DNA from: a bacterium
Lineage (GTDB): Bacteria; Hinthialibacterota; Hinthialibacteria; Hinthialibacterales; Hinthialibacteraceae
Reading direction: 5' to 3'
Assembly (NCBI GenBank): GCA_963662285.2
Contig: CAXXMV010000008.1
Location: forward strand, 1,216,001-1,280,000
Length of the DNA: 64,000 nucleotides
The translations under genes and the position numbers were made by a program. Below are positions 2,257 through 58,193 of the stretch, piece after piece. The notes below the pieces were generated by a model. It had not been told where the DNA came from, searched no databases, and was given only the letters and a program-made list of their open reading frames with translations. Within the stretch, counting starts at the first letter, position 1; the number at the start of each line of letters is the position of its first letter.

Positions 2257-2574
2257 TTATACTCGTTTCTGCAGCCCCAACATAATCGACCATACCCCGA
2301 TACAGGCGCCGTGATACCTTTTATTCTCATAGGGAATCGAATTCTTGAAGTTGATGTAATCCATATTTTCAATATATTTAGTAAGATTTTGCGTAACATC
2401 GGATGTCGAAACAAAAGCCCGGTAACGGTAATCGGCGGCTTCATCTTCAAATACGTCTGCGTCCGGGAATAACTCTTCAATATCGCCCTTACAGCGCGCT
2501 CGGACTATGCGGTGGTCAGGATCGTTCTTGTCGACGACAATGGATATGAATGATTTACTGGTGAATAACCACAT
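2257..2574 (-). CDS. Conserved-looking hypothetical protein (VRAR..GDI / DYRYRA / DYxNFK motifs)
   Basis: 105 aa ORF with GGAGGA RBS; last gene of the minus-strand run. Confidence 0.75.
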   Translation of the reverse strand: MWLFTSKSFISIVVDKNDPDHRIVRARCKGDIEELFPDADVFEDEAADYRYRAFVSTSDVTQNLTKYIENMDYINFKNSIPYENKRYHGACIGVWSIMLGLQKRV

Positions 2575-2595: not shown

Positions 2596-3280
2596 TTATT
2601 TCATTCTAGTCGTTTTCGCTTTTTGGATTGTTTTCTGTTTTGTTTCGATGAAAGTGAATTCATACAATTCATCTTCTAAATTTACAATTAAATCCACTTG
2701 ATTTGATTCATTCTTTTCGGGGCATTTGGTGTTTTCGATTACGACGATTCCCCCAAACGTTGTATCCGGTTGAACTGTGGTTTTTTGTAGAATTGCGGCG
2801 TCGAGATCGGAGATCGTTTCCTTGTACCTGGATGCAACCTGCGCCATTTCAGCATTGGTCTGAGTTTGAGCCTGCATTAGTGGCGTTCAACGATCTCGCC
2901 GCTCCACTCAGCCCCACGCAGAACATCATGAGGGCGTATTGTTGCCGAGCGATACGTTCCAATTCTTCATAGGTATAGACTTTGAGATCGTCTCCATTTA
3001 CTTTGGCCGTAATGTTTTCTGTGGAGAAATTGATCGGCTTGTCCGTTTTGTTGGATAAGGAGATCAAAAATTCTGGTTTTACCGAAGAATCCCTCACCCG
3101 GTTGCATAATCCCACGGAAAGGATATTGCTTTTCTGGGAAACGATATGTTCCGCCCCTTTCACATATACGATTTCCTGGTCCGGAGACGGTTGGGGAACC
3201 ATGACGACCATTGTGGCGCAACCTTGCATAAACTGAAAACAGCATCCGGTTAGAAACAAGGATAGTGTGGAATATCTCAT
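2596..3280 (-). pseudogene. Putative lipoprotein split into two overlapping frames
   Basis: 2849..3280 has a signal/lipobox-like MQGC; 2596..2877 continues in another frame with no obvious RBS, suggesting one frameshifted gene. Confidence 0.55.
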
Positions 3281-3355: not shown

Positions 3356-4840
3356 TTACTCCACGCTGAACGCCGACAGGTGACAGAGCGAGTCAGAGTA
3401 CCATACCCCGACGCCGGTGCAGCTTTCGTCCTTGATGGTTAGTTCGTTTCCCAGGCCGATGGATGGATCGCATATTTCAATGGAGTTTTGGATGCGCTCC
3501 AGAAACTCTTGCGCCGTTCTTTGGGGGCATACCGGTATGTCGGATTGATGGATCGAATCCATAAAATAGGAGTCGGAGAGGCGCTCCCAGCATTGATGGA
3601 AACTTGCGGAATGATCAAAACAGTCCATCCCGATAATGTGGTTTCCGCTGCCGACAACGACGCCTACTGCAGCCTCAGGCAAAACGAAGCGGTCTTTGTA
3701 TTCTCGAATTCGTTCGCTTGACTTCTGATAGGCATCGGTGATCGATTCGGTATTGGAACATGCCTGGTGTTCCTTTAGATTCATGGACACCTCTTCCCAC
3801 ACCGCACCCTGATCGCTATAAGCGGCTCCAGAACTTGCCCGGCATTCTTGAACGCTCTGCAACTTGCGGCTGCGCAGTTTGGGATGGGCGTAATGATCGG
3901 ACTTGAAATCCTTCGTGGTAAACCGCCAGCGGCCCCGCTCCACACAACTGACCGGAATTCGTAAGGTAATATGGGCCGCCACAAGGATGCTGATATTCAC
4001 CACCCGGTTCTGTTTCGCCCCCACTAGGATTTCTCCTTCCGGGATCAGGATGGGTTTATCGTTCTGATTGTGGATCATCAATTCGTTGACCTGTCCCTGT
4101 TGAGAGACCTCCTCGACAATTGCTGTTTTCGAGTCAATCGCATTCTTTAACAGAATGTAATCGGCGTGAGTCAGATTGCTGGATACGATGGGGAAAACGG
4201 TCAGGTTGCAGTAATAGACGCCTTCCTGAATTTGTAATCCCGTCATAGCGGATCGTATTTTATTCTCGATGTTCTTGCCCTGATCGTTTCGAATCGTATC
4301 GGCTTTTGATTCGAAAAGATTTAAGATCAGATGCGTCTCCGGGGTGACATCTCTTTGCAGAACATGACGAAGACGGCGCTGCAGACCGGTAATGACGGAG
4401 GCGTTCTGGAATCCCTCCAGATTCTCATAGAGAATGCGCATGGATTCCTGCAGGGCTTCGACGTCGCTAGTTGGTTTTGCTTGGGATTCGAAGATCGATG
4501 CCCCCTTATCCGCCAGAAAGACCTTCAGGTTTAGTGAGAATCCATGCATGCGGTCGCCGCGTTGGTTTGCGTTCTGGGTGGGAATATAGCCGTCGATGAA
4601 AACCTTTCCCCGGTCGATGAGTGGAGCCAACCAGACGCACGTTCGGCGCTCGACAAACCCCACATCCTCGAAATCTAGATTCTTGACGCAGATAGCATTC
4701 AGATCGTGAGAATTTTCGGAATCTCGTTCCAGGTAGACCTTCTCGCCGGGCAACAGACGCCCATGTACGTACTGCATGCCGGAAAGCCTTGTTTTGATTT
4801 CGCCAATACATTTTTCCTGCGCTTTATTTGATACGTTCAT
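3356..4840 (-). CDS. HIRAN domain fused to an ARPP-1 (DUF6569)-like domain
   Basis: N-term GMQY..LERDSENSHDLNAICV..VGFV (HIRAN); C-term NLTVFP..GEILVGAKQNRVVN..IPVSCVERGRW..DQGAVW (ARPP-1). Start at 4840 chosen from GGAGG RBS. Confidence 0.8.
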   Translation of the reverse strand: MNVSNKAQEKCIGEIKTRLSGMQYVHGRLLPGEKVYLERDSENSHDLNAICVKNLDFEDVGFVERRTCVWLAPLIDRGKVFIDGYIPTQNANQRGDRMHGFSLNLKVFLADKGASIFESQAKPTSDVEALQESMRILYENLEGFQNASVITGLQRRLRHVLQRDVTPETHLILNLFESKADTIRNDQGKNIENKIRSAMTGLQIQEGVYYCNLTVFPIVSSNLTHADYILLKNAIDSKTAIVEEVSQQGQVNELMIHNQNDKPILIPEGEILVGAKQNRVVNISILVAAHITLRIPVSCVERGRWRFTTKDFKSDHYAHPKLRSRKLQSVQECRASSGAAYSDQGAVWEEVSMNLKEHQACSNTESITDAYQKSSERIREYKDRFVLPEAAVGVVVGSGNHIIGMDCFDHSASFHQCWERLSDSYFMDSIHQSDIPVCPQRTAQEFLERIQNSIEICDPSIGLGNELTIKDESCTGVGVWYSDSLCHLSAFSVE

Positions 4841-4900
4841 TCTGTTCCTCCATTTTCGGTTGATCCGCATTCGTATATGCATTCTTCTTCAAGACGCTTG

Positions 4901-5278
4901 TCAGGCGACACACGCTTCCTGGATTTGCCATAAGATATTGGATTCGTTGCGGTGATTTTGTGTGTAGGTGGTAATCCACTCGTATTCCCCGAATCGGTCT
5001 CCTCTGGCTATGACGGCGATCAATTCACAACCGGGGAACGATAATTCGAAATACCATGTGGCTACTCCGGCCTGTTTGCGCTGTTGGTAGGCAGGACGAT
5101 ATCCCCGCACCCACATTTCCGAATATGTCAATTGGGTACTCCGGCAGAAACAATCAAAAGCGACTTCAAGTTCCATGGTTTTACCTGTGAACTTTTCAAT
5201 CCGCTCCAACGCATGGTCTTTGATGGAAAAGAATCCCACCTTGCTGATCCGTAAAAACCTTTCACCATTGATCGCCAT
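4901..5278 (-). CDS. Hypothetical protein, DUF4258/RelE-fold-like
   Basis: AAGGAGG RBS before ATG 5278; DHALER and terminal WITTY motifs resemble DUF4258-type proteins (weak). Confidence 0.55.
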   Translation of the reverse strand: MAINGERFLRISKVGFFSIKDHALERIEKFTGKTMELEVAFDCFCRSTQLTYSEMWVRGYRPAYQQRKQAGVATWYFELSFPGCELIAVIARGDRFGEYEWITTYTQNHRNESNILWQIQEACVA

Positions 5279-5316: not shown

Positions 5317-5333
5317 AGCAAGAGGAGTGCCAA
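5317..5333 (-). promoter_or_regulatory. sigma54 -24/-12 promoter
   Basis: TTGGCACTCCTCTTGCT matches YTGGCAC-N5-TTGCW (GG-N10-GC), about 40 bp upstream of ATG 5278. Confidence 0.85.
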
Positions 5334-5446
5334 CATATTAAATTGATGAGAGATATACTTATGACAGGCTTGAAAATATGAAGTTAGGAAGAGAGTATAG
5401 GAAGATGTGTAATATTTAAATCATCTTATAAAATCGAGTGAATAGG

Positions 5447-5477
5447 TCATTTTTTGAGTGATATAATCAAATAATGA
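5447..5477. promoter_or_regulatory. Putative enhancer (UAS): two TCA-N5-TGA palindromes 20 bp apart
   Basis: TCATTTTTTGA (5447-5457) and TCAAATAATGA (5467-5477), upstream of the sigma54 promoter. Confidence 0.5.
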
Positions 5478-5621
5478 ATAATTGGAATAAGGAATTATTC
5501 TGATTCCGTGACTGCTGACAAACCAGATTTTCACCCTCTGAATTTAGTTTATTTCTAAAAGAATGCTTGATTAGATTCATCCATAAAGGGAAAATTGTTA
5601 AAAAGAGATTGAGCAAGCAAT

Positions 5622-6638
5622 ATGAAATGGTTCGCATCCTTTTTCATACCATCTACAGACTGGATACAGATCGAGATTAGCACGGTCTGCAACGCCGCCT
5701 GTATTTATTGTCCCCGCACGACACATCTTGACCACTGGCAGAATCGGTTTATGACTCGTGAGACATTCCAGAAAATTGTACCCGCCTTATCAAAATCCAA
5801 TATGGCCTACCTGCAGGGATGGGGCGAGCCCTTTCTTCATCCCGACATTTTTAAATTCATCTCACTTGCGAAACAGGCGAGGTGTTTGGTTGGAACGACC
5901 ACCAATGCCATGTCGCTCGACAGTGATAAAATCTATCGCTTGGTTGAATTGGGCGTCGATATCATTGCGTTCTCACTAGCGGGCGCCAGCGAAAAGAACG
6001 ATGTATTTCGCAAGGGAACGCAGTTGAACAAAGTTCTTGAAGCCATTAAGTGTCTCGATCGGATTAAACATGAGATGGGCGCTTCTCGACCCTCTATCCA
6101 TATTGCTTATATGCTGCTTCGCTCCGGTCTAGAAGATATTGATGATTTACCATCCCTTCTATCCGGCTTGAATATTGATCAGGTCGTTATCACCACCTTG
6201 CCTTATGCGCCCTCACCCGAAATGGAAGAAGAAATGCTATGCGCGTTGCAACCCGTTGAACGTCAAGAACTAAAAACACGATTACAAGCCATCGCCGAAA
6301 AAGCAAAACGGATGGGCGTTCCAATTAATTATTATTTGAGGGATTCAGATAACAGCGTTTCGGTATGTACGGAAAACATCGAAAAGGCGCTCTTCATTTC
6401 CGTAAACGGAGAGGTCTCCCCGTGCGTGTTTACGAGGATGCCACTAAATAATCCCCTCAAGAAACCGGAGGATGAGAAGCATACTCGCCAACAGATCGTA
6501 TTCGGCGATATAAATCGCCAATCATTCAAAGAAATCTGGAATCAGAAAGACTATCGTGATTTTAGAAATTCCTGTTCATCCGGACAATTATCCCAATCCT
6601 GCCGCCATTGTCCCAAACGGCATGAAATACTCTTCTGA
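5622..6638 (+). CDS. Radical SAM / SPASM(Twitch) domain protein
   Basis: CNAACIYC (CxxxCxxC), QGWGEPFLHP, C-terminal GEVSPC...CRHCP. Confidence 0.9.
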   Translation: MKWFASFFIPSTDWIQIEISTVCNAACIYCPRTTHLDHWQNRFMTRETFQKIVPALSKSNMAYLQGWGEPFLHPDIFKFISLAKQARCLVGTTTNAMSLDSDKIYRLVELGVDIIAFSLAGASEKNDVFRKGTQLNKVLEAIKCLDRIKHEMGASRPSIHIAYMLLRSGLEDIDDLPSLLSGLNIDQVVITTLPYAPSPEMEEEMLCALQPVERQELKTRLQAIAEKAKRMGVPINYYLRDSDNSVSVCTENIEKALFISVNGEVSPCVFTRMPLNNPLKKPEDEKHTRQQIVFGDINRQSFKEIWNQKDYRDFRNSCSSGQLSQSCRHCPKRHEILF

Positions 6639-6879: not shown

Positions 6880-8451
6880 TTATTCTTCAGATACCCATTT
6901 TCGCAAAGTATTAACAGCTACGACCAAAGCCTGCGCCGCTTGAGACCAGTTTCCTTCGTAGAGTTTCAGGACATGCTTCATATAGGAGATTTGAATTTCG
7001 GATGCAGGCAATACCTCAGTACAGTCTTTGGGGCGAAACATGAGCAGGTCTTTAGCCGTTCCCAGATCGCGAACGTGGCCGTATTCCGTATCGACTCGCA
7101 TTTCTTCCTTTACGACTTCACCAAAGGGCTTTTTCAGATAAACAGCCCGCTTGAGCAAGTTGATGAACTGGCGGATGTTTCCCGGCCAGTCGTATCCGTA
7201 AGCGGTCAGCCAATCCTCTTTTGTTAGAGAGTAGGAGTACTTCTTTTTCTTCATCTCATAGAGAAGATTGTTGGCGATTGATTTCATATCATCGAGTCGA
7301 TCCCTGAGTGGAGGGACGTAAATTTGCAGGACGTTTAACCGGTAATAAAGATCAGAACGGAAACGTCCTTCTCGAATCAAAGCGGGAATATTCTGATTGG
7401 TGGCGGCTATGATCCTCACATCTACGGATTTCGATCCCATAGTGCCGAGCGGTGTGATAGTCCCCTCCTCCAAAACGCGCAGCAATTGCGTTTGAACCGA
7501 CATCGGGAGTTCGGCGATTTCATCCAAAAATAGAGTTCCCCCATCGGCTTTTTCAAAAGCGCCCTCTTGATTGGTATTGGCTCCTGTATATGCCCCAGCA
7601 ACATGACCGAACAACCGGTCGTGAGCCAAATCGGAACTTGCGCTTAACATAGCGCAATTCACCGGGACAAATGGACCGCTGCGCTTACTGGCTTCATGCA
7701 GATTCCAGGCCACGAGTTCCTTCCCCGACCCGGTAGGACCCAGAATGAGAACCGGCTCGTCAATGGGGCCGATCTTCTGCACCAGCGACCGCAGGTGTTT
7801 CATAAGTTTGCTTTCACCCAAGGGAACGGTGTGTGATCCGTAAAGGCGGTAGGCATCCACTTCTTTATAATCAGATTCGGTAAGGGGAACGATCCCCGCC
7901 AGTTTCTGGATGGCCTGGATATAACTCGAACGGTCGCCGTATTTGAAATAACGGGCCGCGCTCGCCCGGATCAGGTCGTGCCAAAATTGTTCTTCTTTGG
8001 AAGGTTTCTTTTTGTCGGAAACGAACTGATAGGAAAGGATCAGGAGAAATTTTGATTGATCGTTCAGAGAGATGTTATGAAAAATCTGGATGATATCGGT
8101 ATTGCTTCTGGCTTTCTGGAAAACCGGCTTGCAAACATCTCCTAGCGCCTCTTCATACTCATTCAGATATTCCCTCCCACAGTACCATAGAACGGTCCGT
8201 TTTTTTCGAGTCAGTTGAGTAACCCTTTCGAGAACCTCACCGATGGATTCGTTCACGCCGACGCCGCAGATATGGATTACATCGGGTATCTGGGATTGTC
8301 CCTGAATCCCTTCCAGTGAAGTAGCGATCCGCCGGGCGCTGGTAATAACAATATTGGCTTTCGGATGGATCTGCAAAAGCATAGCCGCCGAACAAGCTCC
8401 ATCCATTCCATGTGTGGTCAATATACAGTGATGTTGTTCGCGAGTCGCCAT
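6880..8451 (-). CDS. sigma54-dependent enhancer-binding protein with a degenerate DHH-like N-terminal domain
   Basis: Walker A GPTGSGKE, GAYTGA loop, Walker B LFLDEI, FRSDLYYRL, WPGNIRQ, C-terminal Fis-type HTH; N-term THGMDGACSA resembles DHH motif I. ATG 8451 has a GAGAGG RBS (ORF track start 8514). Confidence 0.9.
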   Translation of the reverse strand: MATREQHHCILTTHGMDGACSAAMLLQIHPKANIVITSARRIATSLEGIQGQSQIPDVIHICGVGVNESIGEVLERVTQLTRKKRTVLWYCGREYLNEYEEALGDVCKPVFQKARSNTDIIQIFHNISLNDQSKFLLILSYQFVSDKKKPSKEEQFWHDLIRASAARYFKYGDRSSYIQAIQKLAGIVPLTESDYKEVDAYRLYGSHTVPLGESKLMKHLRSLVQKIGPIDEPVLILGPTGSGKELVAWNLHEASKRSGPFVPVNCAMLSASSDLAHDRLFGHVAGAYTGANTNQEGAFEKADGGTLFLDEIAELPMSVQTQLLRVLEEGTITPLGTMGSKSVDVRIIAATNQNIPALIREGRFRSDLYYRLNVLQIYVPPLRDRLDDMKSIANNLLYEMKKKKYSYSLTKEDWLTAYGYDWPGNIRQFINLLKRAVYLKKPFGEVVKEEMRVDTEYGHVRDLGTAKDLLMFRPKDCTEVLPASEIQISYMKHVLKLYEGNWSQAAQALVVAVNTLRKWVSEE

Positions 8452-8471
8452 GAGAAACCTCTCAACGTAAA

Positions 8472-8502: not shown

Positions 8503-8646
8503 TAACTCTATCATGGCATCAATAGAAACAATACACTTCCTCTACTATGATTCAGTAAAATAAATATCACTTCAACAATCAGAATTTCCTATAGATAAGC
8601 AATACGATCTCTTCCCTTTGTTCCTTTTTATTTTGTAGCGTATTAT

Positions 8647-8663
8647 CTGGTATGCCCTTTGCA
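8647..8663 (+). promoter_or_regulatory. sigma54 -24/-12 promoter upstream of the addB-like gene
   Basis: CTGGTATGCCCTTTGCA, GG-N10-GC, about 35 bp before ATG 8699. Confidence 0.7.
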
Positions 8664-8698: not shown

Positions 8699-11600
8699 AT
8701 GAATCCTATTATCCACCAACTTACTCGGATATGCAAAGAAAACCTTCTATCTGAAAAATGGCTGATTGTTTCTTCTCTCCGTGTTGGCCATCAGTGGCTG
8801 GATCAAGTTGCCAGGAACGGTCAGCCGGTTGTGAACATGCGACTGCAAACGGTATCCCGCATGGCCTTTGAGTGGATCGAAATGGATTCAGGCGTGGATT
8901 CCGCCAAAATGTTGGCGTCTCTTGCTGGACCGCTGATCCTCCAAAATATTTGGCGAAACGCGGCCAAGGGAGAATTGAAATACCTGAACGATCTTTCCCC
9001 CAATTTGAAACTCTTTCAGAAATTATACGAAACCATCGAATCATTACGCCTGGCCAATCTATCCAGCGGGGAGATATGCAATAACCATTTTGAATGTCAC
9101 GAAAAAGGTGACGATATCGCTTATTTACTGGGCCAATACGAACGATACCTGGAGCGGAACCAGTTATTGGATCGGGCGGAACTCCTCAAAAAAGCGGTAT
9201 TGATGGTATCGTCAAATCGAGACGATACCATCCCCTCCGATTCGATCTTTATCGTCCCGGATACCTTGGAATTATCTCATCTGGAAAATGAGTTTTTGCG
9301 GTATCTTACTCAAAACCAGTGCATAACTTTGCCGAGTGCATCCATCCTCGAACGCACGGAGGAACCGGCGTCCGATCTCGATTTACTTCGGTGGCTTCCC
9401 GCTCCCGTGGAAGCGCCAGCCGCTTTTCAAGATGAAAGCGTCCGCATTTTTTCCGCTTTGGGTGAAATCAATGAAATTCGGGAAGTTCTTCGCCGATGTC
9501 TCGCCGATGAAATCCCCCTGGATACCGTGGAACTGCTGTATACCGATGTACATACCTATCTTCCCCAAATATACGAAACCGGTTTGTCCGTATTGCCTTT
9601 AGACCCGCAAAATTCCATCCCCATCACTTTTGCGGATGGGATTCCCGTTCGCTATTCACGTCCCGGACGCTTATTGCATATCTGGCTGGAATGGCGTCAG
9701 TCCGATTATCCCCAAACGCTCTTGCTCCAAATGCTGGAAGACGGCTTGCTGAATCATCCCCTGTTTGATAACGGGAGCGTTCAGGCCGATTCATGCATAC
9801 AATCCCTGCGCTCGATTGCGATTGGATCGAAACGGGAGCGCTATGAATCCCGAATCCAACAGACGATTCAATCTCTTGAAAGGCAAGTGAAAGACTCGTT
9901 TTCCCCGCACGAGTCGCAGGAAATCGAGGGAACCGAGTATCAGCAAAAACTCAGACAGGAGATTGAGTTATTCAAAATCCTGTACACTATCGTTTCGGAT
10001 TGGTTTTCCATATTACCCCCTCTGCATGCCAATCCACTCGAACAGATCGATTCGATTCACGCGCTGTTAGCGGATTATTCTCACAATTCCACGGAACTCG
10101 ATCGCAATGCCCGGAACCGAATCATGGACGAATTGGAAACCATGGGGAGCTGTATCCAGGAACATGAAGAAAACAATGAAATCGACATCCAGGAGTGGTT
10201 ATCCTCTCTCCCCACTCAACTAAGGGTTCTTGGCAGTTCTCCCCGCGAAGGGCGCCTACATGCCGCTTCTATCACGAATGGTGGGAATAGCGGAAGAACG
10301 GTTACTTTTATAGTCGGCCTGGATGACGCCCGTTTTCCCGGTTCGGTCTTTCAAGATCCGTTTCTGCTGGATCGCGAGCGGGAAACCATGTCTTCCGCCC
10401 TGCCGACTGCATCGACCCATCAGCGGGATACCCTCGATCGGTTTTATCAGCTTCTTGGACGTCTCCAGGGACAATTGACCCTCAGTTATTCGTCTTATGA
10501 TCTCAGCGACGATCGCGAGATGTTTCCCAGCAGCGTTGTTCTCAATGCCTATCGAATCCTGTCCGAAAACCGGGAAGGAGATCCCTCCTCGCTGGCCGAA
10601 TGGCTGTTTCCGCCTGCGTCCTTCTCGCCGTTGGATTCTCGAAAAGCGCTAAATGAATCCGAATTGTGGATGCACCGCATGAACGGGCAAAAGTGCGGCC
10701 ATAATTCCCTGGCAGACGCAATGCGGCGATATCCGCATATCGGCAACGGTTTAACGGCCCAGGCCGCCCGATGCAGCCAGGATTACACGGAATACGATGG
10801 TTGGGTTCCCGAATCGGGCAAGGACCTCGATCCCACCTTACCCCATGGGATTGTGATGTCGGCGTCGAGATTCGAAACCTTGGGCCAATGTCCATTGCGG
10901 TTCTTTTTTGAAAATGGACTCAAACTGCAACCGCTGGACGATATCGGCGTCGATCCCGACCGCTGGTTGGATCCACTACAGTTTGGATCGTTCTTGCATG
11001 AGATGTTTGAAACCTTCATGCAGGAATTGATCGATAAAAAGGAAAAACCAAATTATAAGAATCACTGGCCGCGCTTAAAAAACCTGCTTGGCGAACTGGT
11101 TCAGAAATATCGGGATTACATCCTTCCTCCTAATGAGAGCGCCTTCACTCGCCAGCGCCTGGAATTCGAACAATGCGCCGTTATTTTTCTGAAAGATGAA
11201 GAGACGCTCTGCCAGTCGCACACCCCCGTTTATGTGGAAGCCGCCCTGGGGATTCCTTCTCCGAAATCGTCCAAAACCGTTTCCACGACGCCCCTGCATA
11301 TCCTCTTGCCGGATGGGAAATCCTTTCGGGCGAGGGGGATTATCGATCGCGTCGACCGGATTGGAAACGAAAGTGAACATATGTACGCCATATGGGATTA
11401 CAAAAGCGGCGGTACGTATAAATACGAACAGAACGATCCATTTCGCCAGGGCCGGGTGATTCAGCATTCACTCTATTACGAACTCATGACTCTCTGGTTG
11501 AGAGACTGTGTCTCGCCCCATGCGACGATTAGCCAATTCGGATATTTTTTCCCCAGTGAGAAAGGGAAAGGCGAACGAATCGCCTGGACCGAACCGGAAC

Positions 11601-11815
11601 TCGCTGAAAGAGGAAACATGTTCCAATCGCTCTGCCAGTCGATCGCCCACGGGATATTCGCGCCGACCAACGATGAAAAAGATTGCAACTTCTGCGATTT
11701 TCAACCTATTTGCCAGGACGTTGCCTCGATAACTCGAAGCAGCGATAAAAAACTCCGTAATCCCATGAACGTTTGGCTACAGCCCCTAAAGGAACTCCGT
11801 TGCGATGAACGATAA
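8699..11815 (+). CDS. AddB/RexB-like subunit: inactive helicase-like body plus PD-(D/E)XK nuclease with Fe-S cysteines
   Basis: SASRFETLGQCPLRFF, GIIDRVD..WDYKSG, CNFCDFQPIC; overlaps the addA-like gene. Confidence 0.85.
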   Translation: MNPIIHQLTRICKENLLSEKWLIVSSLRVGHQWLDQVARNGQPVVNMRLQTVSRMAFEWIEMDSGVDSAKMLASLAGPLILQNIWRNAAKGELKYLNDLSPNLKLFQKLYETIESLRLANLSSGEICNNHFECHEKGDDIAYLLGQYERYLERNQLLDRAELLKKAVLMVSSNRDDTIPSDSIFIVPDTLELSHLENEFLRYLTQNQCITLPSASILERTEEPASDLDLLRWLPAPVEAPAAFQDESVRIFSALGEINEIREVLRRCLADEIPLDTVELLYTDVHTYLPQIYETGLSVLPLDPQNSIPITFADGIPVRYSRPGRLLHIWLEWRQSDYPQTLLLQMLEDGLLNHPLFDNGSVQADSCIQSLRSIAIGSKRERYESRIQQTIQSLERQVKDSFSPHESQEIEGTEYQQKLRQEIELFKILYTIVSDWFSILPPLHANPLEQIDSIHALLADYSHNSTELDRNARNRIMDELETMGSCIQEHEENNEIDIQEWLSSLPTQLRVLGSSPREGRLHAASITNGGNSGRTVTFIVGLDDARFPGSVFQDPFLLDRERETMSSALPTASTHQRDTLDRFYQLLGRLQGQLTLSYSSYDLSDDREMFPSSVVLNAYRILSENREGDPSSLAEWLFPPASFSPLDSRKALNESELWMHRMNGQKCGHNSLADAMRRYPHIGNGLTAQAARCSQDYTEYDGWVPESGKDLDPTLPHGIVMSASRFETLGQCPLRFFFENGLKLQPLDDIGVDPDRWLDPLQFGSFLHEMFETFMQELIDKKEKPNYKNHWPRLKNLLGELVQKYRDYILPPNESAFTRQRLEFEQCAVIFLKDEETLCQSHTPVYVEAALGIPSPKSSKTVSTTPLHILLPDGKSFRARGIIDRVDRIGNESEHMYAIWDYKSGGTYKYEQNDPFRQGRVIQHSLYYELMTLWLRDCVSPHATISQFGYFFPSEKGKGERIAWTEPELAERGNMFQSLCQSIAHGIFAPTNDEKDCNFCDFQPICQDVASITRSSDKKLRNPMNVWLQPLKELRCDER

Positions 11816-14800
11816 GATTTCAACTCTGCCCGATTGCCGGGAGCGCGATTCCATTCTGGACGACCTGGATGTCAACATCCTGGTGGAAGCAGCGGCGGGA
11901 ACCGGAAAAACCACCAGCCTGATCGGTCGGATGATGAATTTGATCCGAGAGGGGAAATGCACAGCCGAGGGTATGGCGGCAGTCACCTTCACGCGGAAGG
12001 CCGCCGCCGAAATGCGTTCCAGATTCCAGGTTGAATTGGAGAAAACTCTCCGCTCTGAATCCGGATTGGTTCATCAACGGATATCGGACGCACTCGGACA
12101 AATCGAGCACTGTTTCATCGGAACCATCCATTCCTTCTGTGCGCGCCTTCTTCGCGAACGTCCGGTGGAAGCGGGCGTGGATATCGCCTTCCGGGAGATC
12201 GATGATCTGGAAGATCGACTGATTCGCCGCGAGGCATGGGATGAATGGGTAGCCGGTCTTTATGCCTATGATGATCCCATTTTGACGGAATTGCAGGAAG
12301 CGGGATTGGAAATCGGCGCGCTGGTTTCCACGTATCAGAAAATGGCCGATTATCCCGATATTGATGAGTGGCCCGCTCCCCCAACGCCCATGCCCAACCT
12401 GCAGCCAATCCGCGAGGCTTTGCTCGATTACGCAGCCCATATGGAACAAATGAATCCAACTCTTCCCGACGATCCAGGGAACGACGAAATAATCCCGAAA
12501 TACCGAACGATTCTCCGGTTGGTAAAATACCACAATCTATCCGATCCCGTCTCCTTTATGAAAGTTTTGGAGGAATTCAAAAAGTCCAAGATCATTCAAA
12601 AGCAATGGCCCGGGGGAAAGAATCAGGCTCTTGCGGAGCGCGACCGATGGGACTCGTTTCGGGAAACGTACGTCATTCCCACCCAACAAAAATGGTATGC
12701 CCGCCGGTATGAAATCAGTCTGCGCGCCATTTTGCCTGCCATTAAAAGATACGAAGGAAAGAAAAAGCGGGACGGCGTGCTGAATTTTCAGGATTTGCTG
12801 CTCTTAACCGCTTCGATGCTGAAACGCTGGCCGTCGGTTCGGCGGTATTTTCAACAACGAATATCCCGTCTTCTGGTGGATGAATTTCAGGATACCGATC
12901 CCATCCAAGCCGAAATCATGATGTTGCTGACCTGCGAGGATATCTCGGAGAAGGATTGGAGGCGCTCCCATCCACGAGCCGGTTCCTTGTTTGTCGTGGG
13001 AGACCCGAAGCAATCGATTTACCGGTTTCGCCGGGCCGATATTGTAACCTACAACCAAGTCAAAAAAATCATCCAACAGAATGGCGGAAGGATTCTTCAT
13101 CTATCGTCCAATTTCAGAACCGATCCAACCATTCTCGATTGGGTCAACCAAAAGTTCCAATCTCAATTTCCTGAAACAGAAACACCCTATTCGCCCACCT
13201 ACGTTCCGCTCCAACACGGGAAACCGCAAACCACTCTCCCAGATGAAGAAAAAATAAAAAAATTAACGATTCCTCAGGACAAAACCAATAAGAACGATTG
13301 TTCCCTTTATGAATCCTCGTTCATCGCCCGATGGATTCATGAGGAAATTCAATCGGGCCGGGCCCAGCCGGAAGACTTTATGATCGTTACTTACTTGACC
13401 AAAAATCTGAATCTCTACGCCCGGCAGTTGGAGAAATTTCAGATTCCATGCCAGGTTACCGGAGGCGACGCGCTGAACCAAGTGGAAGAATTGCGATTAC
13501 TGACCCTCTGCCTGACCGCCATCAATCAACCCTGGAATCCCATCGCGCTGGTGGGCGTCTTACGCAACGAACTATTTGGTTTCAGCGATTCCGAACTGTA
13601 TGCGTTCAAGAAACACGGAGGGGAATTCTCATACGGAGATACAATCCCCAGCGGTCTACCAGCTGAGGTTTACTCCAAATACAACGATGCGTTTACACAA
13701 TTGCGTTTATACCGAAGTTGGATCAAAACATTGCCTCCCTCCACAGCCATAGAGAAAATCTGCGATCGTTTGGGATTGTTCGCCTGCGGAAGCGCTTTTC
13801 CTGGCGCCAATCTACGCTGCGGTTGCCTGGCCAAGGCCATAGCCGTGATCCGGTCTTCTCCGGATCGATTTATCTCTATTGGCGATATCGTCGATTTCTT
13901 CCACCAATTGATCCAAAATGAAATCAAGTTGGATGGAATATCCGCCTCGCCGCCCCAAAAGTCCTTCGTGCGCATCATGAACTTGCACAAGGTGAAGGGA
14001 TTGGAAGCGCCGGTCGTGTTTCTGGCCGATCCTTCCGGAAAAACCAACCATGAGGCCGATCTTCATATCGACCGCCTTCAGGACGCCGCCAGGGCTTATT
14101 TGAAGATGGAGCAGGAAAATCCACAGTCCTATCATAGGAAATTACTCGCTCAACCGGCCGATTGGGATCGATACAGCGCGGAAGAACAACAGTTTGGAGA
14201 TGCGGAGAAAATCCGTTTGTTTTATGTGGCCGCCACCCGCTGCAAGCGGCAACTCATCATTACCCAGCGGGAAAAGGGCAACCATCATAATCCCTGGAAT
14301 TTCTTCAATTCCTATCTTGAAAACGTTCCCATTGTGGATTCTCCCGTAACATCGCCCCTATCAAAACTTGATCCAACATCCTGGAAGCAAAGCGATATCG
14401 ATTTGCAGATGGACTCTATAAGGAAGCGCTGGGAGAAAATTATCGTTCCTACCTATTCCGTTAATGCCATCAGCCGAATGGATCGCGATGAGGAATGGGA
14501 GCCTTCCTCCCGCGAGGAGGGAATCCAATGGGGAAACCTGATTCATGCCGTTCTCGAAGCGTTGATTCGAAATCCCGATTCAGCCCTGGAAAAAGTTGTG
14601 GCAAAATCCATTCGAAAACACAATTTGAATCCCGGCTGGCACGACGACGCGATTCGCCAAATTCAGACGGTTCAACAATCCAGCATCTGGCAACGCGCGC
14701 TCCGCTCCCCAAAGCGCTTTGCGGAAGTTCCGATCCGCATACAAGGAGCAAATCCTTTGCAAAACGATAAACCGCTGCTTCTTCGAGGCGCGATCGATCT

Positions 14801-15002
14801 GATCTTCCAGGAAAAAGACGGATGGGTATTGGTCGATTACAAAACCGATGGCTCGGCCCAAAACGACGTAGAACCGCTCGTTGAAAAGTATCGGAGGCAA
14901 ATCCAATCGTACGCCTGGGAATGGGAACGAATCACCGATAATCCAGTTGTGGAAAAGGGGATTTATTTTACGGAGATCGATCGGTTTGTAGAAGTGAATT
15001 GA
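11805..15002 (+). CDS. AddA-like UvrD/SF1 helicase-nuclease
   Basis: AAAGTGKT, TFTRKAA, TIHSFC, VDEFQDTD, VGDPKQSIYRFR, HKVKGLE, YVAATR, GAIDL..VDYKT. Confidence 0.9.
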   Translation: MNDKISTLPDCRERDSILDDLDVNILVEAAAGTGKTTSLIGRMMNLIREGKCTAEGMAAVTFTRKAAAEMRSRFQVELEKTLRSESGLVHQRISDALGQIEHCFIGTIHSFCARLLRERPVEAGVDIAFREIDDLEDRLIRREAWDEWVAGLYAYDDPILTELQEAGLEIGALVSTYQKMADYPDIDEWPAPPTPMPNLQPIREALLDYAAHMEQMNPTLPDDPGNDEIIPKYRTILRLVKYHNLSDPVSFMKVLEEFKKSKIIQKQWPGGKNQALAERDRWDSFRETYVIPTQQKWYARRYEISLRAILPAIKRYEGKKKRDGVLNFQDLLLLTASMLKRWPSVRRYFQQRISRLLVDEFQDTDPIQAEIMMLLTCEDISEKDWRRSHPRAGSLFVVGDPKQSIYRFRRADIVTYNQVKKIIQQNGGRILHLSSNFRTDPTILDWVNQKFQSQFPETETPYSPTYVPLQHGKPQTTLPDEEKIKKLTIPQDKTNKNDCSLYESSFIARWIHEEIQSGRAQPEDFMIVTYLTKNLNLYARQLEKFQIPCQVTGGDALNQVEELRLLTLCLTAINQPWNPIALVGVLRNELFGFSDSELYAFKKHGGEFSYGDTIPSGLPAEVYSKYNDAFTQLRLYRSWIKTLPPSTAIEKICDRLGLFACGSAFPGANLRCGCLAKAIAVIRSSPDRFISIGDIVDFFHQLIQNEIKLDGISASPPQKSFVRIMNLHKVKGLEAPVVFLADPSGKTNHEADLHIDRLQDAARAYLKMEQENPQSYHRKLLAQPADWDRYSAEEQQFGDAEKIRLFYVAATRCKRQLIITQREKGNHHNPWNFFNSYLENVPIVDSPVTSPLSKLDPTSWKQSDIDLQMDSIRKRWEKIIVPTYSVNAISRMDRDEEWEPSSREEGIQWGNLIHAVLEALIRNPDSALEKVVAKSIRKHNLNPGWHDDAIRQIQTVQQSSIWQRALRSPKRFAEVPIRIQGANPLQNDKPLLLRGAIDLIFQEKDGWVLVDYKTDGSAQNDVEPLVEKYRRQIQSYAWEWERITDNPVVEKGIYFTEIDRFVEVN

Positions 15003-15311: not shown

Positions 15312-15364
15312 CGAAATTCATCCGCCAACTGGTGGATATTGGCCAGTTGGCCGGAGGTTTAAAA

Positions 15365-16219
15365 ATGAACCAAGACCAAGAAAACAAGAGAAATACTCTG
15401 ATCGCAGAGAGCAAAAAAATGATTGATGAGACATTAAACCGGCTGTGTGATCAACTCGACAAAGGGTATTCGAACGCCATGCTTCAATATTTGAAAGTGA
15501 TGTCGTGCTTCTATAAATACTCAACCGGAAACCAACTTTTGATCTATTCCCAAAATCCGAAGGCGTCCAATGTAGCAGGATTCCGTTCCTGGAATAAATT
15601 GAATCGATATGTGAAGAAAGGGCAGAAAGGCATTTGCATTCTTGCTCCCTGTGTCTACCGCAAAAAAGAAAAAAGCAAGAATGATATAAAAGAAAGGGAA
15701 GGCGATAAAGAAAAAAAAGTAGTAGGCTTTAGACCTGTTTACGTTTTTGATGAATCCCAAACCGACGGTGAAGACCTGCCCGAACCGCCTACTGCTATTG
15801 GAAAAGCAGAAAACCTCATTCCTCTTATAGAAAACGTAATTGCTGATAAAAGTATTAAATTGAAATATGAGGAAAATCGTTCAGTGAAAGGAACCTCTTA
15901 TGGAGGAACAATCATTATTAAATCCGGAATGTCGTCAGCCGAGCATTTCTCCGTTTTGGTACATGAATTGGCTCATGAGATGCTTCACCAGAACACTGAA
16001 GGGAAGAAAATAGTTCGATCTACCAAGGAATTAGAGGCTGACGCTGTGGCTTGCGTTGTCTGTGAACATTACGATATTCAAGCGATTCAATCATCCTCGG
16101 ATTACATTAAGAACTGGAATGGTGATCGAAAAACACTTTTCGAACAGTTTGAGCGAATAAGAAAAAGCGCCTCGGATATCATTTCGTGTATGGAAAACTT
16201 ATCCAAATCGCCCAAATAA
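15365..16219 (+). CDS. ArdC-like ssDNA-binding protein with a zincin (HExxH) domain
   Basis: YS..NQLLIYSQNP.A..VAGFRSW..VKKG, VFDESQTDG, VHELAHEMLH, ELEADAVA; GGAGG RBS before ATG 15365. Confidence 0.85.
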   Translation: MNQDQENKRNTLIAESKKMIDETLNRLCDQLDKGYSNAMLQYLKVMSCFYKYSTGNQLLIYSQNPKASNVAGFRSWNKLNRYVKKGQKGICILAPCVYRKKEKSKNDIKEREGDKEKKVVGFRPVYVFDESQTDGEDLPEPPTAIGKAENLIPLIENVIADKSIKLKYEENRSVKGTSYGGTIIIKSGMSSAEHFSVLVHELAHEMLHQNTEGKKIVRSTKELEADAVACVVCEHYDIQAIQSSSDYIKNWNGDRKTLFEQFERIRKSASDIISCMENLSKSPK

Positions 16220-22864: not shown

Positions 22865-23842
22865 TTGGATACACTCAATCAGCAAAAAGGCGGATTTCAG
22901 TGTAACGAGGAGACACCCTTGCAATGCGATTTATTGATCATCGATGAGATGTCGATGGTGGACACGATCCTGATGCATCACCTGCTCAAAGCCATTCCTC
23001 TTCAAGCGACTTTTTTGATGGTGGGGGACATCAACCAATTACCTTCCGTTGGCGCGGGGAACGTTCTACGAGACATCATAACTTCGGGAAGGATTCCAGT
23101 AGTCGAACTCAATGAGATATTCAGACAAGCAAAATCGAGCTCAATTATTGTCAACGCCCACATGATTAACGCCGGCAAGGCGCCAATCCTGAAAAAAGAT
23201 AACGAGGAGTTGGACGATTTTTATTTTATCGAACAGGAAAATCCGGAAACGGTGATTCAAACGATCAAAAAATTAGTTAAGGAACGCATCCCCAAGCGAT
23301 TTAATCTGAATCCAATCGACGAGATTCAGGTTCTCACGCCCATGCAAAAAGGCTCAGTAGGCGGAGTGAAAATGAACGCCGAACTGCAAGCCGCTTTGAA
23401 TCCGTCCACCCAGGAAATAACTCGCGGGGGCCGAACATTCCTGGCGGGCGATAAGGTCATGCAGATTAGGAACAATTACGATAAAGATATCTTCAATGGT
23501 GATATCGGCCGAATCCGGTCGATTGATTCTGAAATGCAAGAGGTCAAAATTGATTTTGATGGGAGGGAAATCACCTATGAATTCTCTGACCTCGATGAGA
23601 TCATATTGGCCTACGCCGTATCGGTACATAAATCGCAGGGCTCTGAATTCCCGGCGGTGGTGATTCCGTTACTGACCCAGCATTACGTCATGCTGCAGCG
23701 CAACTTGTTGTATACGGCGGTGACGCGGGGCAAGAAACTGGTGGTTCTGATCGGAACCAGAAAAGCTTTGGCGATCGCCGTGAAAAATGATAGGACGCAG
23801 AAGAGGTATTCGCATTTGAAAGAGAGATTAAGTCGAGCATAG
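22865..23842 (+). pseudogene. recD2: RecD2-like helicase, C-terminal fragment only
   Basis: LIIDEMSMVD, VGDINQLPSVGAG, IFRQA, FNGDIG, AYAVSVHKSQGSE, RNLLYTAVTRGK; Walker A and N-terminal domains absent. Confidence 0.8.
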
Positions 23843-23860
23843 TCAGGAAGGAAAAGTGAC

Positions 23861-24733
23861 GTGGGACCGATATCAAATAAACTGAAAAAGAAATTCTCAA
23901 ACAAAAAGAAATTGATTTTATTCGATGAAGTCAGGGAAATCGCATCCCAATCCGAGCAATTAGCGAATACAATCAAAACCCCGGATCGATTGAAAGATTA
24001 CGATCCGCTTCATGCGATTCATATCACCGCTCAAAATCTGGTTTCAGTTTTCGCCGAACAAATCTCAATACTCCCTGAATTAAAATTGTATCATAAAGAG
24101 GTTGCCAAAGCAGAAGATCGGTATATCCCGGGTTTCCCGCCGATAAGTCCTATTACGAATTCTTATTTTACCATGTGGGCTTTTTATGATTATTGTTTCG
24201 GCGACGATCGAGAGAGTATTGCAAGCATATTGCTCGATTTGTCCGGTATCTTGCACTTGAGCGCTGAGTGGTTGCAGGTTATTGAAACTCAAAAGCGCTC
24301 GTGTATGGGTGTTCACGAACATTGCGGTTTTTTCGAGGATAAAATCCTTTTGAAAACGTTGATAACCGGCGAAGAGCGGAAGTGTATATGCCCAGCAGGA
24401 TACAGAGGAGAGGAAGGAGAACTGTGGTTTGCCCGGATTGTTGACGCTCCGTTTTCCTGGCTGGATTATAGCGTGGTTTTTACGACTCCGTATCTTTTAC
24501 GGGGACATAACAAGGTTCAATGGTTAGAATATTTTGAGAGGAATGGGATTACGGAGAGCGATTCGGAGGCGCAACAGAACCTCCAGTTGTTCATGAAACA
24601 AGGCGACGCCATTTTTTATTGGCATGATTATATCCTGAATGGTTATGATGGATACCGAGATAATGTGATATTTCTTCGCGGCATTCCGGATATGCCAACC
24701 ACGTTGCCGCATGGTGGAATGTTTGTAGATTAA
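23861..24733 (+). CDS. Hypothetical protein
   Basis: 290 aa ORF, RBS-like AGGAAGG, in a co-directional run. Confidence 0.7.
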   Translation: MGPISNKLKKKFSNKKKLILFDEVREIASQSEQLANTIKTPDRLKDYDPLHAIHITAQNLVSVFAEQISILPELKLYHKEVAKAEDRYIPGFPPISPITNSYFTMWAFYDYCFGDDRESIASILLDLSGILHLSAEWLQVIETQKRSCMGVHEHCGFFEDKILLKTLITGEERKCICPAGYRGEEGELWFARIVDAPFSWLDYSVVFTTPYLLRGHNKVQWLEYFERNGITESDSEAQQNLQLFMKQGDAIFYWHDYILNGYDGYRDNVIFLRGIPDMPTTLPHGGMFVD

Positions 24734-24840
24734 AACAAATTTGCCGATCTTTTCGATTCTTGAAAGATGTTTCGGATCGTAATGAAGAACGATATGAATT
24801 GGAGAAAAAATCTTTCACTAACAGAATAAAGAACTAGATC

Positions 24841-25257
24841 ATGGAAAAGAAACGAATGCCCAAAACAAAGAAAGAATGGTTGACGGATATCGCTGAGGCA
24901 TATAAAGACGCAAGAGAGGCCATACCGTTTGGAAAATTTTCTCTTGGGAGGCCTTTAAAAGAAGATGAACTCTTTCATCTAGCGCCTCAAGTGTGTTTTA
25001 AATTTCGGGGAATCAAAGCATCGGAGAAAAGAAAGAACGAAATCGTTGAAGGGACGTTGGCGAGTTATATTGCAACTATGGACGGTGGAGAGGGTGGCAA
25101 TATTTTGAAAGAATCGCCAATGTTTGGTTTTTGTTTTTGTTACCTTGCAGCCCACTATGTCGCCGATCTGCTCGAGGATGAAAAAGTCGCCGCCATTATG
25201 GATTATTGTGTGGAAAGAGTAGAAACTTTAGAATCTTTAATCTCTGATAACGTTTAG
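24841..25257 (+). CDS. Hypothetical protein
   Basis: 138 aa ATG ORF in the same run. Confidence 0.65.
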   Translation: MEKKRMPKTKKEWLTDIAEAYKDAREAIPFGKFSLGRPLKEDELFHLAPQVCFKFRGIKASEKRKNEIVEGTLASYIATMDGGEGGNILKESPMFGFCFCYLAAHYVADLLEDEKVAAIMDYCVERVETLESLISDNV

Positions 25258-25267
25258 GGGATGAGCG

Positions 25268-25582
25268 ATGTGGATAATCGACATACGCCATTGGATAGAT
25301 GAAGAAACAGAAGAGGCTGCCGCGCCACAGTTATCTTCCAACGTAAAAGGACTAAAAGAGGTCATCCATTTTGCGACCTCAAAAGCCGCTGGCATTGACG
25401 CAGAATTACCCCGCTGCTGGCATCCAGAAAATAAACGTTGTGATGGTTATCTCATTGCGGAGATCGTCAGTCCGGAACGAATTCATTGGGCATGCACGGT
25501 TTGTGAATTTGAGGGTGAAGTGTCTGGGTGGAGAGAGTTGAGATGCAACAACTTGCGTTCCAATCAAAAACGGTTGCATTAA
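25268..25582 (+). CDS. Hypothetical protein, possible Zn-ribbon
   Basis: C-x6-C ... WACTVC; 10 bp after the previous gene. Confidence 0.65.
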   Translation: MWIIDIRHWIDEETEEAAAPQLSSNVKGLKEVIHFATSKAAGIDAELPRCWHPENKRCDGYLIAEIVSPERIHWACTVCEFEGEVSGWRELRCNNLRSNQKRLH

Positions 25583-25588
25583 GGGAAA

Positions 25589-25987
25589 TCAAAGATATTG
25601 ATCGATGTTTTCAACGTTGTTGTTCTGGTCAAGTGATGGAATCGAATCCTCCGATCCCTGGCTGTCAACACGATTTTGTTCGTTCGTGTGTACATAGGTT
25701 TTCTGCATCTGTTTTTTTAATCTACTCCCGGGCCGAAAGGTTGGAACAACCCGTTCAGGTAGATTTATTTCTTGCCGTGATGTCGGATGTAGAATTTTTC
25801 GTGCTTTACGCTTCACAGGCAGGAACGATCCAAATCCAACTAATACAATTCGCTCGCCTCTCAAAAGCCCCTCCGAAATCAGATCAAGAATTTTGGAAAT
25901 GATTCGCGTCGATCCTTCCAGTGTCAAATTAAATTCCTCAGAAATACTTTTGGCCAGCAGATATTTGTTTAATGTTCTCTTTGTCAT
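25589..25987 (-). CDS. HU/IHF-family DNA-binding protein
   Basis: LNKYLLAKSI, GERIVLVGFGSF..RKARKILHP....I.LP..VPTFRPG; start trimmed to ATG 25987. Confidence 0.85.
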   Translation of the reverse strand: MTKRTLNKYLLAKSISEEFNLTLEGSTRIISKILDLISEGLLRGERIVLVGFGSFLPVKRKARKILHPTSRQEINLPERVVPTFRPGSRLKKQMQKTYVHTNEQNRVDSQGSEDSIPSLDQNNNVENIDQYL

Positions 25988-26099
25988 ATCAGAGATTATA
26001 ATCGAGGGCTTTATATAATTTTCGGTAAGAAATAGTGCTTGAATAAAAGAAACGTTCCCCTCATCGGTTGTCTGATCTATCGAAGACAACCGACTCGAG

Positions 26100-57458: not shown

Positions 57459-58193
57459 TTAAATAACTTTTTTCAGTCGATGCTTTATCCGTTGATTTGC
57501 GAATCGCCATAGGTCAGATGAGATAAAAAGATCGTGCTTTCCATGGCGATTTTGCTCAATATAGAAATCGTTTTTCAGAACGAAACCTGTGGTTGATCGT
57601 TTAATGCCCGTCATATCGGCTATCTCTCGAAGCGAGAATCCATTAGCGGCCAAGATAAACACTTCTTTGACGATCCGACTAGTCTTTTTATCGATAACAA
57701 TCTGCTTTTGTTCCATCCGATATCCGAGCGGTGGACGGTTCATAAAGCGGTTATAGGATTTTGCTTTATCAATTCCTCGCCGGATTCTTGCCTGACGCAA
57801 TTCCGTTTCAAACTCAGAGAAGACTGCCCGTATTTTCGAAAACGCTTTCTCCGATGGCGTCTCACTTTTGCATTCATTGACGAACTGAATCGTTATCCCT
57901 TGTCTTTGCAGGTGAGTCGATAACCAACCATATTGGAATACGTCACGAGAAAGACGGTCGGATTCGGTGGCGATGACGGCGTGAACAGACGGATTGATCG
58001 CTTCGATCATCGCCATAAGACCGGAACGATCGAACAACCGCGTTCCACTGCTCTGATCCTCGAAGATTTCAAGAAGCTGTAACTGATTCTTCTCGCAGTA
58101 TTTTTCTATTTCCGAACGCTGACCATCGAGTGAAAATCCTTTTCCCTGCTCACCGGTTGAGACGCGAATATACCCATATACTTTTGGATTCAT
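57459..58193 (-). CDS. Serine recombinase
   Basis: YGYIRVSTGEQ (catalytic Ser), DRLSR, PPLGY, short recombinase domain. Confidence 0.9.
   Translation of the reverse strand: MNPKVYGYIRVSTGEQGKGFSLDGQRSEIEKYCEKNQLQLLEIFEDQSSGTRLFDRSGLMAMIEAINPSVHAVIATESDRLSRDVFQYGWLSTHLQRQGITIQFVNECKSETPSEKAFSKIRAVFSEFETELRQARIRRGIDKAKSYNRFMNRPPLGYRMEQKQIVIDKKTSRIVKEVFILAANGFSLREIADMTGIKRSTTGFVLKNDFYIEQNRHGKHDLFISSDLWRFANQRIKHRLKKVI

Follow-up and report, generated by a model that had tools for sequence, protein, structure and literature searches.

Several described systems provide the background to the locus reported herein. First, the CARF domain of the sigma-54 activator RtcR binds 5' tRNA halves bearing a cyclic phosphate, after which the protein oligomerises (available part of PMC7790460). 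Second, in the DHH phosphoesterase RecJ, the residues of the DHH motifs bind two metals and their substitution by alanine nearly abolishes activity, and the DHHA1 lobe provides half of the dTMP pocket (available part of PMC4846377). Third, in the available part of their report, Iyer et al. 2022 described ARPP proteins together with HIRAN or WYL regulators, and proposed that the Nudix/WYL sensors of ARG/ARPP systems read ADP-ribose or nucleotide fragments (PMC9503650). In the present study, we analysed a window of 64,000 nucleotides (the whole stretch of DNA) from a bacterium of the phylum Hinthialibacterota, in which a sigma-54 activator carries a degenerate DHH domain at its N-terminus.

The activator and its N-terminal domain

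The following features of the activator gene were observed.

8451-6880, minus strand: open reading frame of the sigma-54 activator, 523 aa, with a GAGAGG ribosome site 7 nt upstream of the start
7831..8451, minus strand: degenerate DHH domain, residues 1-207 (AF2, Foldseek, VIA, hhalign)
8401..8415, minus strand: motif I remnant T13-H14-G15-M16-D17, where the active family has H-G-D-L-D (profile alignment)
8263..8265, minus strand: G63 at the position of the motif II Asp (Gly in 73 of 74 sequences, D/E/H in none)
8173..8181, minus strand: C91-G92-R93 at the position of the DHH triad (intact DHH in 0 of 74 sequences)
7129..7818, minus strand: sigma-54 AAA+ domain and lid, residues 212-441 (Pfam PF00158, PF25601)
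6880..6990, minus strand: probable Fis-type HTH and stop codon (from HTH_8 in family members)

In the translation, the protein begins MATREQHHCILTTHGMDGACSAAMLL, and the segments ICGVG and WYCGR occupy residues 61-65 and 89-93. The sigma-54 machinery is readily recognised: Sigma54_activat (PF00158) spans residues 212-377 (E 1e-59, 201 bits) and the lid residues 383-441, and the AAA+ domain contains the Walker A, Walker B and arginine motifs, its sequence including GPTGSGKE (Walker A), the loop GAYTGA, LFLDE (Walker B), FRSDLYYRL and WPGNIR. The GAFTGA loop thus reads GAYTGA in this activator, as in 16 of the stored family proteins (GAFTGA in 35, others in 5), and Walker A is degenerate in two homologues. 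HTH_8 was matched by Pfam in 38 of the 74 family members and not in the window activator itself, for which a C-terminal Fis-type HTH is probable. The genome carries a single rpoN and a single copy of the DHH-like domain, and the locus has a -24/-12 promoter with an upstream enhancer, both assigned by motif.

Residues 1-210 gave no sequence match in Pfam, NCBIfam, PHROGs or PDB; DHH clusters were ranked top for the domain by Atlas, with a score of 0.82 that serves as a lead only. The AF2 model built on a 74-sequence alignment (pLDDT 96, pTM 0.92) consists of an alpha/beta core (residues 1 to about 127) with helices and five strands (8-12, 33-36, 58-62, 86-91 and 108-111), followed by a helical subdomain at about 131-207, and lacks a DHHA1/DHHA2 lobe. 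With this model as the query, Foldseek ranks 1-14 were all DHH proteins, the best being pAp phosphatase, RecJ-Cdc45, H. pylori 6MTZ and RecJ (E 3e-5 to 7e-4), and ranks 1-12 of a wide VIA search were likewise DHH proteins (Z 15.5-10.7, rmsd 3.0-4.4, 174-197 aligned residues), the first non-DHH protein appearing at Z 9.8. The domain therefore shows the five parallel strands, the strand-end motifs and the helical subdomain of the DHH fold. The preliminary description of this DNA had named a DHH-like domain in the input position of the activator, with REC, GAF or CARF as the folds that structure prediction might return instead; prediction and fold search of the N-terminus, together with profile homology to an intact DHH family, bear the DHH assignment out, with the fold ending at about residue 207 (nt ~7831) and the AAA+ domain following from residue 212.

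The sensor domain was aligned with an intact family of about 315 aa by hhalign over 193 columns (P 98.4%, E 6.2e-15). In this alignment, the H, D and D of motif I correspond to T13, G15 and D17, the motif II Asp to G63 and the DHH triad to C91-G92-R93. The loss of the metal ligands that had been suspected at motif II and at the triad is thus confirmed by the profile comparison and by the 74-sequence alignment, in which D/E/H occur at each triad position in at most 2 of 74 sensor sequences. The earlier reading of motif I needs to be corrected in part: the Asp of THGMDG, D17, is the second Asp of the motif and is indeed kept, but His14, which occurs in just 4 of 74 sequences, is not the motif I His, the position being taken by T13. 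Of the acidic set of motif I, T13 and G15 stand for the His and the first Asp, and D17 is the sole catalytic residue left. The C-terminal lobe of DHH enzymes is also missing: the hhalign match ends at residue 205, against position 200 of 320 in the intact family, and the alignment shows that the AAA+ domain, at residue 212, begins where the second lobe of the enzyme would be. DHH ancestry and the loss of the two-metal site in the input domain of the activator are thus shown computationally. Because the metal-binding residues equivalent to those of RecJ are lost, the sensor domain is predicted to be inactive, that is, without phosphoesterase activity, and because the DHHA1 lobe is missing, the canonical nucleotide cleft would be incomplete. 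That a weak hydrolase activity persists, making the protein a bifunctional enzyme-regulator, appears hardly credible: D17 is kept as D in 57 and as E in 8 of the sequences (65/74), but nothing remains of the triad, of the motif II Asp or of the first Asp in motif I, and RecJ with alanine at the equivalent residues is nearly inactive (available part of PMC4846377).

The best-conserved positions of the sensor domain are S38 (72/74), G63 (73/74) and G65 (68/74), together with W89 and D17, and in the alignment and the AF2 model the former active site is formed by strand ends at which S38, G63, G65 and D17 are located. A further conserved patch, R167-Y168-F169-x3-D173, lies outside the catalytic motifs in the 74 sequences. 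The cysteines around the old active site, C20 (47/74), C62 (55/74), C91 (45/74) and C107 (50/74), are conserved and lie near D17 in the sequence motifs, and could be read as a redox or metal switch. We consider such a switch very unlikely, since none of the four is invariant, the substitutes A, S, L and V fit small buried residues, and the adjoining genes are mostly not redox genes.

Intact relatives and distribution of the fusion

The intact family of about 315 aa (proteins P0098-P0163, 65 matches) consists of standalone DHH proteins in which all catalytic motifs are present, H10, D12, D14, D61 and D90-H91-H92 being invariant apart from gaps. By sequence comparison it is the nearest active relative of the sensor domain, and the family is uncharacterised. 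The C-terminal lobe of its members is divergent and terminates in a conserved GHKSP, and most of them fall under the Pfam DHH cut-off. The best PDB sequence matches of the family are 6MTZ (E 1e-7), PggH (E 0.009) and pAp phosphatase (E 0.13); comparison of the sensor domain itself with RecJ by hhalign gave motif I alone (E 0.03), and comparison with NrnA gave no match. Since the nearest active relatives resemble the 6MTZ, PggH and pAp-phosphatase enzymes more than RecJ, long ssDNA and c-di-AMP are less favoured as ligands than short nucleotide products. One member of this intact family, a 324-aa protein with intact DHH motifs, is encoded near a sensor-family member in one metagenome locus (L085:2793-3764, minus strand). 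An intact DHH enzyme as a regular partner of the activator was considered and rejected: it adjoins the activator in this one locus, and in 0 of 35 genomes of the phylum and 0 of 17 other activator-bearing genomes.

A phmmer search of 1.84 billion representatives gave 87 matches to the sensor domain. The AAA+ domain is present in 57 of them, and the remaining 30, all of 236 aa or less, are probably mostly fragments. Standalone short relatives beyond such fragments were not found with an N-terminal profile, a search of low sensitivity that missed the intact family too. The sensor family is present in 12 of 35 genomes of the window's phylum, in at least 19 loci of genome records assigned to Planctomycetota, Hydrogenedentota, Nitrospirota, Acidobacteriota, Myxococcales and Thermodesulfobacteriota, and in 27 further loci from metagenomes; in viral contigs, neither the sensor family nor the intact DHH family was found. 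In a quick IQ-TREE analysis of 72 AAA+ domains, for which 28 of 30 chosen family members had passed the motif filter, these 28 were separated from the other domains by a branch with SH-aLRT 99, and as judged from this tree the DHH-AAA+ fusion is one clade across several phyla, with one origin. A single homologue of 812 aa (P0056) has a calcineurin-like phosphoesterase fused ahead of the DHH-like domain, possibly a read-through artefact. For the analysis of gene neighbourhoods, 60 loci were examined and one without the N-terminal domain was dropped, the remaining 59 forming 44 groups at 85% identity.

Operator, promoter and neighbouring genes

The features upstream and downstream of the activator gene are as follows.

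5445..5480, no strand: paired TCAA-N3-TTGA operator (enhancer) of the likely target operon, lying 145 bp ahead of the sigma-54 promoter
5317..5334, minus strand: sigma-54 -24/-12 promoter TGGCAC-N5-TTGC, conserved in relatives
4901..5278, minus strand: 125-aa protein with a predicted RelE/MqsR-like fold (AF2, VIA)
3356..4882, minus strand: HIRAN-ARPP-1 fusion, about 494-508 aa (Pfam PF08797 E 1e-13, PF20208 E 8e-82)
2257..2574, minus strand: conserved small protein of 105 aa, found after HIRAN-ARPP-1 in L015, L019, L022 and L024
8470..8505, no strand: paired TCAA-N3-TTGA operator directly before the activator gene (pair score 23.5)
8646..8663, plus strand: divergent sigma-54-like site before the addBA-like genes (score 10.7, 176 bp from the operator)
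8699..15002, plus strand: addB-like and addA-like helicase-nuclease genes (Pfam PDDEXK_1, UvrD)

A palindrome pair, TCAA-N3-TTGA with a period of 20-21 bp, recurs in relatives both before the promoter and before the activator gene. With operator and promoter matrices trained on relatives from other genomes (L015-L026), the pair at 5445 scores 25.6 bits, higher than any other in the 7.29-Mb genome; the pair at 8470, which is likely autoregulatory, ties second genome-wide with a promoterless site. The sole zero-mismatch sigma-54 consensus within the window lies at 5318-5332 on the minus strand. Combinations of operator and promoter number three in the genome, two of which flank the activator gene and one of which lies inside an unrelated ORF, and eight local shuffles of the genome yielded one combination in total (0-1 each). 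Among the 25 combinations listed, the spacing between operator and promoter is mostly 141-148 or about 120 bp, within a range of 109-148 bp. Among the 33 groups outside the training set, 14 had a promoter scoring at least 12 within 400 bp and 14 had an operator, against a background of 3%. In an independent check, unlinked HIRAN-ARPP operons of activator-positive genomes carried operator and promoter in three of four cases, and among six HIRAN-ARPP loci of activator-negative genomes both elements were present in one (G012, a genome 82% complete) and absent from four, the sixth being cut upstream. Within the phylum, ARPP-1 itself occurs in 11 of 12 genomes that have the activator and in 5 of 23 that lack it, counts that are not an independent statistic because the genomes are related, many of them also being incomplete; in the twelfth activator-positive genome, the contig ends within the HIRAN gene.

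In relatives, the activator is directly followed by the sigma-54 promoter and the RelE-like and HIRAN-ARPP genes, and in the window the promoter at 5317..5334 is followed by the 125-aa ORF, HIRAN-ARPP-1, two ORFs and the 105-aa ORF. The conservation of these sites suggests that the operator-marked operon of the RelE-like, HIRAN-ARPP-1 and 105-aa genes is likely the target of the activator. The 125-aa protein (AF2 pLDDT 84) has MqsR as its top VIA match (Z 6.8, below the trust level of 8, rmsd 3.0, 79 aligned residues), followed mostly by RelE/ParE-type toxins; Foldseek gave nothing at E<=0.001 and weak HigB/RelE matches at E>0.01. H22, R26, R61, R67, Y76 and Y105 are invariant in the alignment. 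The protein is a likely, though not proven, RNase of the RelE fold. The 105-aa protein belongs to an unnamed phage-associated family (Atlas 0.95, cluster 49% viral), again a lead only. The two ORFs between HIRAN-ARPP-1 and the 105-aa gene (2596-3280, minus strand) encode a lipoprotein-like protein of 143 aa and a protein of 93 aa; neither had a family match or was seen in the operons of relatives. A Radical SAM/SPASM gene at 5622-6638 on the plus strand lies between the activator and the target promoter, is absent there in the relatives examined and is likely an insertion.

At other loci, the genes adjacent to the activator are mostly nucleases, phosphoesterases or defence genes. The genes that stand beside the activator or behind the promoter include nucleases (PD-(D/E)XK, NucS-like, RNase_H_2), phosphoesterases (calcineurin-like, PHP), REase-ARP, GGACT, a CDC48-like AAA ATPase, a pentapeptide-repeat protein, an Hsp70-TPR protein and MAD6/MAD7-like genes (sub-cut-off matches); Nudix domains occur in related loci alongside REase-ARP and the calcineurin-like phosphoesterase. 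An ADP-ribosylglycohydrolase gene was not found among the neighbours scanned, which were part of the ORFs. Several single loci are worth recording. A sigma-54-like site precedes a Nudix-ARPP-1 fusion (L025:17325-19139), which lies at a distance of 6 kb from the activator; the promoter region is duplicated at about 19760. In L027:1707-8300, operator and sigma-54 promoter stand directly ahead of MADS-like NERD-kinase and MAD7-like genes, and in L020:566-6387 the operon runs on into NERD-kinase and MAD7-like genes, again similar to the MADS defence system. A protein of about 900 aa with FtsA-like and DnaB-like regions lies behind a divergent sigma-54-like site in L096:5054-7753 and L102:4932-7658 (minus strand). 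In the window, brxA and brxB (Pfam, PADLOC) are found at 192-1362 on the minus strand, and in about 12 kb to the left of the window ORF reading indicates a continuation into brxC-, pglX-, pglZ- and brxL-like genes, with a small pair of toxin-antitoxin-like genes. It is towards this BREX cluster that the target operon is directed. An ArdC-like gene lies at 15332-16219. A recD2 fragment, small ORFs and a resolvase-like gene (22865-25990 and 57462-58193) resemble the activator flanks in L017, which suggests that the activator module may ride a mobile element.

The addBA-like genes, whose NCBIfam AddA/AddB matches fall below cut-off, could, given the divergent site, form a second, lineage-specific target of the activator, a tentative assignment that we hold to be rather doubtful. 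The operator and the sigma-54 site are missing upstream of all 14 other addB orthologues examined, of which six come from activator-positive genomes, so control of addBA would at best be local, and addBA as a conserved target was set aside. These genes also bear on the suggestion that, in the manner of Cdc45/RecJ or WYL regulators, the domain detects DNA ends or longer ssDNA and drives a DNA-damage response of HIRAN-ARPP-1, addBA and the pentapeptide-repeat protein. RecJ and Cdc45 are among the top VIA matches, Cdc45 still binds ssDNA without nuclease activity (available part of PMC4846377), DNA 3' ends are bound by HIRAN, and WYL regulators are also found with ARPP (available part of PMC9503650), and an addB-like gene follows ARPP in L046, as addBA is divergent here. 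However, the ancestry of the domain lies on the 6MTZ/PggH-like branch (profile E 6e-15, against 0.03 for RecJ and none for NrnA), the domain has neither the OB fold nor the DHHA1 with which RecJ engages DNA, and the other addB genes lack the operator; sensing of long DNA is therefore improbable.

Across the 44 locus groups, ARPP/HIRAN genes are near the activator in 16, the RelE-like 125-aa gene in 15, both in 9 and either in 22, that is, in 11 of 12 groups of the own phylum and 11 of 32 elsewhere, where many contigs are short. Neither ARPP nor the RelE-like gene was found in 22 of 44 groups, and in 6 of 21 where at least 2.5 kb is present on both sides. Activators of this type can also be controlled by proteins, as PspA binds the activator PspF. 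The dead DHH domain might likewise be a protein-interaction surface, its partner being a product of the operon or a protein of an invader. The missing DHHA1 lobe and the R167-Y168-F169-x3-D173 patch off the catalytic motifs would suit such a role, the inactive DHH protein Cdc45 acts inside a protein complex (available part of PMC4846377), and RtcAB bind the CARF domain of RtcR directly (available part of PMC9650030). A partner of this kind is unlikely in our view, because no neighbour is universal, as the above counts of ARPP/HIRAN and RelE-like genes demonstrate, and because the best-conserved residues, S38, G63, G65 and D17, lie at the old active site. Both ligand and partner models have precedent, since RtcR binds tRNA halves as well as RtcAB.

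The candidate signal and comparison with known systems

Herein, we propose that the ligand of the dead-DHH input is a short nucleotide produced when nucleic acids are damaged or attacked, and that its binding frees the ATPase and switches on the RelE-like/HIRAN-ARPP-1 operon, a reading to which we give slightly better than even chances. A short nucleotide product is favoured because of the small-nucleotide ancestry of the domain and the nature of the targets. That the domain is a ligand sensor, as the preliminary description had put forward, is what we infer, and the conserved operator and promoter before nucleic-acid and defence genes lend backing to it. Under the proposed mechanism, the HTH would bind the paired TCAA-N3-TTGA sites about 145 or 120 bp before the sigma-54 promoter and at its own promoter, as conservation and the non-training genomes suggest. 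The old active site, lined by D17, S38, G63, G65, W89, R93 and N117, would then take the ligand, for which 3'/5'-phosphorylated mono- or oligonucleotides such as nanoRNA, pAp/pNpN or phospho-ADP-ribose-like species are candidates. By analogy with RtcR, ligand binding may lead to oligomerisation of the AAA+ domain and open complex formation. Because the operator, the promoter, the targets and an intact enzyme relative are defined, the signal is now directly searchable by reporter or ligand screen, and the inducing condition would hint at the function of ARPP-1 and of the HIRAN-ARPP fusions.

In the broader form of the proposal, a DHH enzyme of the nanoRNase/pAp-phosphatase type, minus its metal site and second lobe, would have become a nucleotide danger-signal receptor that gates, via sigma-54 and across several phyla, an anti-phage/repair regulon, itself mobile and variable (RelE-like RNase, HIRAN-ARPP-1, REase-ARP, MADS-like and other nucleases). 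It would form a new receptor class beside CARF, WYL and Nudix, and the intact cousin may degrade the same signal. We offer this as a possibility that falls somewhat short of probable. Sigma-54 activators hereby gain a pseudo-enzyme input domain, a candidate nucleotide receptor for damage and defence signalling.

The input domain had been called atypical of characterised sigma-54 activators, and this agrees with the literature: no description of a DHH-domain sigma-54 activator was found in the searchable literature, which mostly excludes subscription papers, 'DHH' and 'sigma54' have 0 occurrences in the available main text of PMC9503650, and PMC10333796 is, in its available part, unrelated to DHH-input activators. 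Genuine CARF-AAA+-HTH activators occur sporadically in the window's phylum (L134-L137, in G028, G021, G012 and G025). A sister relation of the DHH activator to CARF activators was considered (PADLOC RtcR_PspF2, 295 bits) and rejected, since ordinary activators score 377-408 with that model and the quick tree, at a support of 80, does not decide the relation.

The activator resembles RtcR in being a one-component sigma-54 activator with an input domain of a nucleotide-binding type, placed beside a nucleic-acid damage operon. Unlike RtcR, its input is a dead DHH fold and not CARF, as judged from structure and profile homology; rtcA and rtcB are not found among the scanned neighbours; and it scores 246 bits with the RtcR model NF038308, against a cut-off of 650, and lies in a separate AAA+ clade. 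With the DHH phosphoesterases (the intact family, 6MTZ, PggH, the archaeal pAp phosphatase 8A8K and RecJ), residues 5-205 share the same alpha/beta and helical fold, but the activator domain keeps one Asp of the H-x-D-x-D/D/DHH set, has no DHHA1/2 lobe and is fused to AAA+ and HTH domains. Like Cdc45 (VIA Z 10.7-11.6), the domain represents a DHH fold minus its metal ligands in non-catalytic reuse (available part of PMC4846377), whereas Cdc45, which has insertions and a C-lobe, belongs to the eukaryotic replisome and the activator uses the fold as transcriptional input. The ARG/ARPP systems share ARPP-1 and HIRAN with this locus, and REase-ARP, calcineurin-like phosphoesterase and Nudix with related loci; their regulators are Nudix- or WYL-HTH repressors (available part of PMC9503650), in contrast to the sigma-54 activator of the window. 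Overall, a circuit of a known kind is combined here with a genuine and new input domain, a dead DHH fold.
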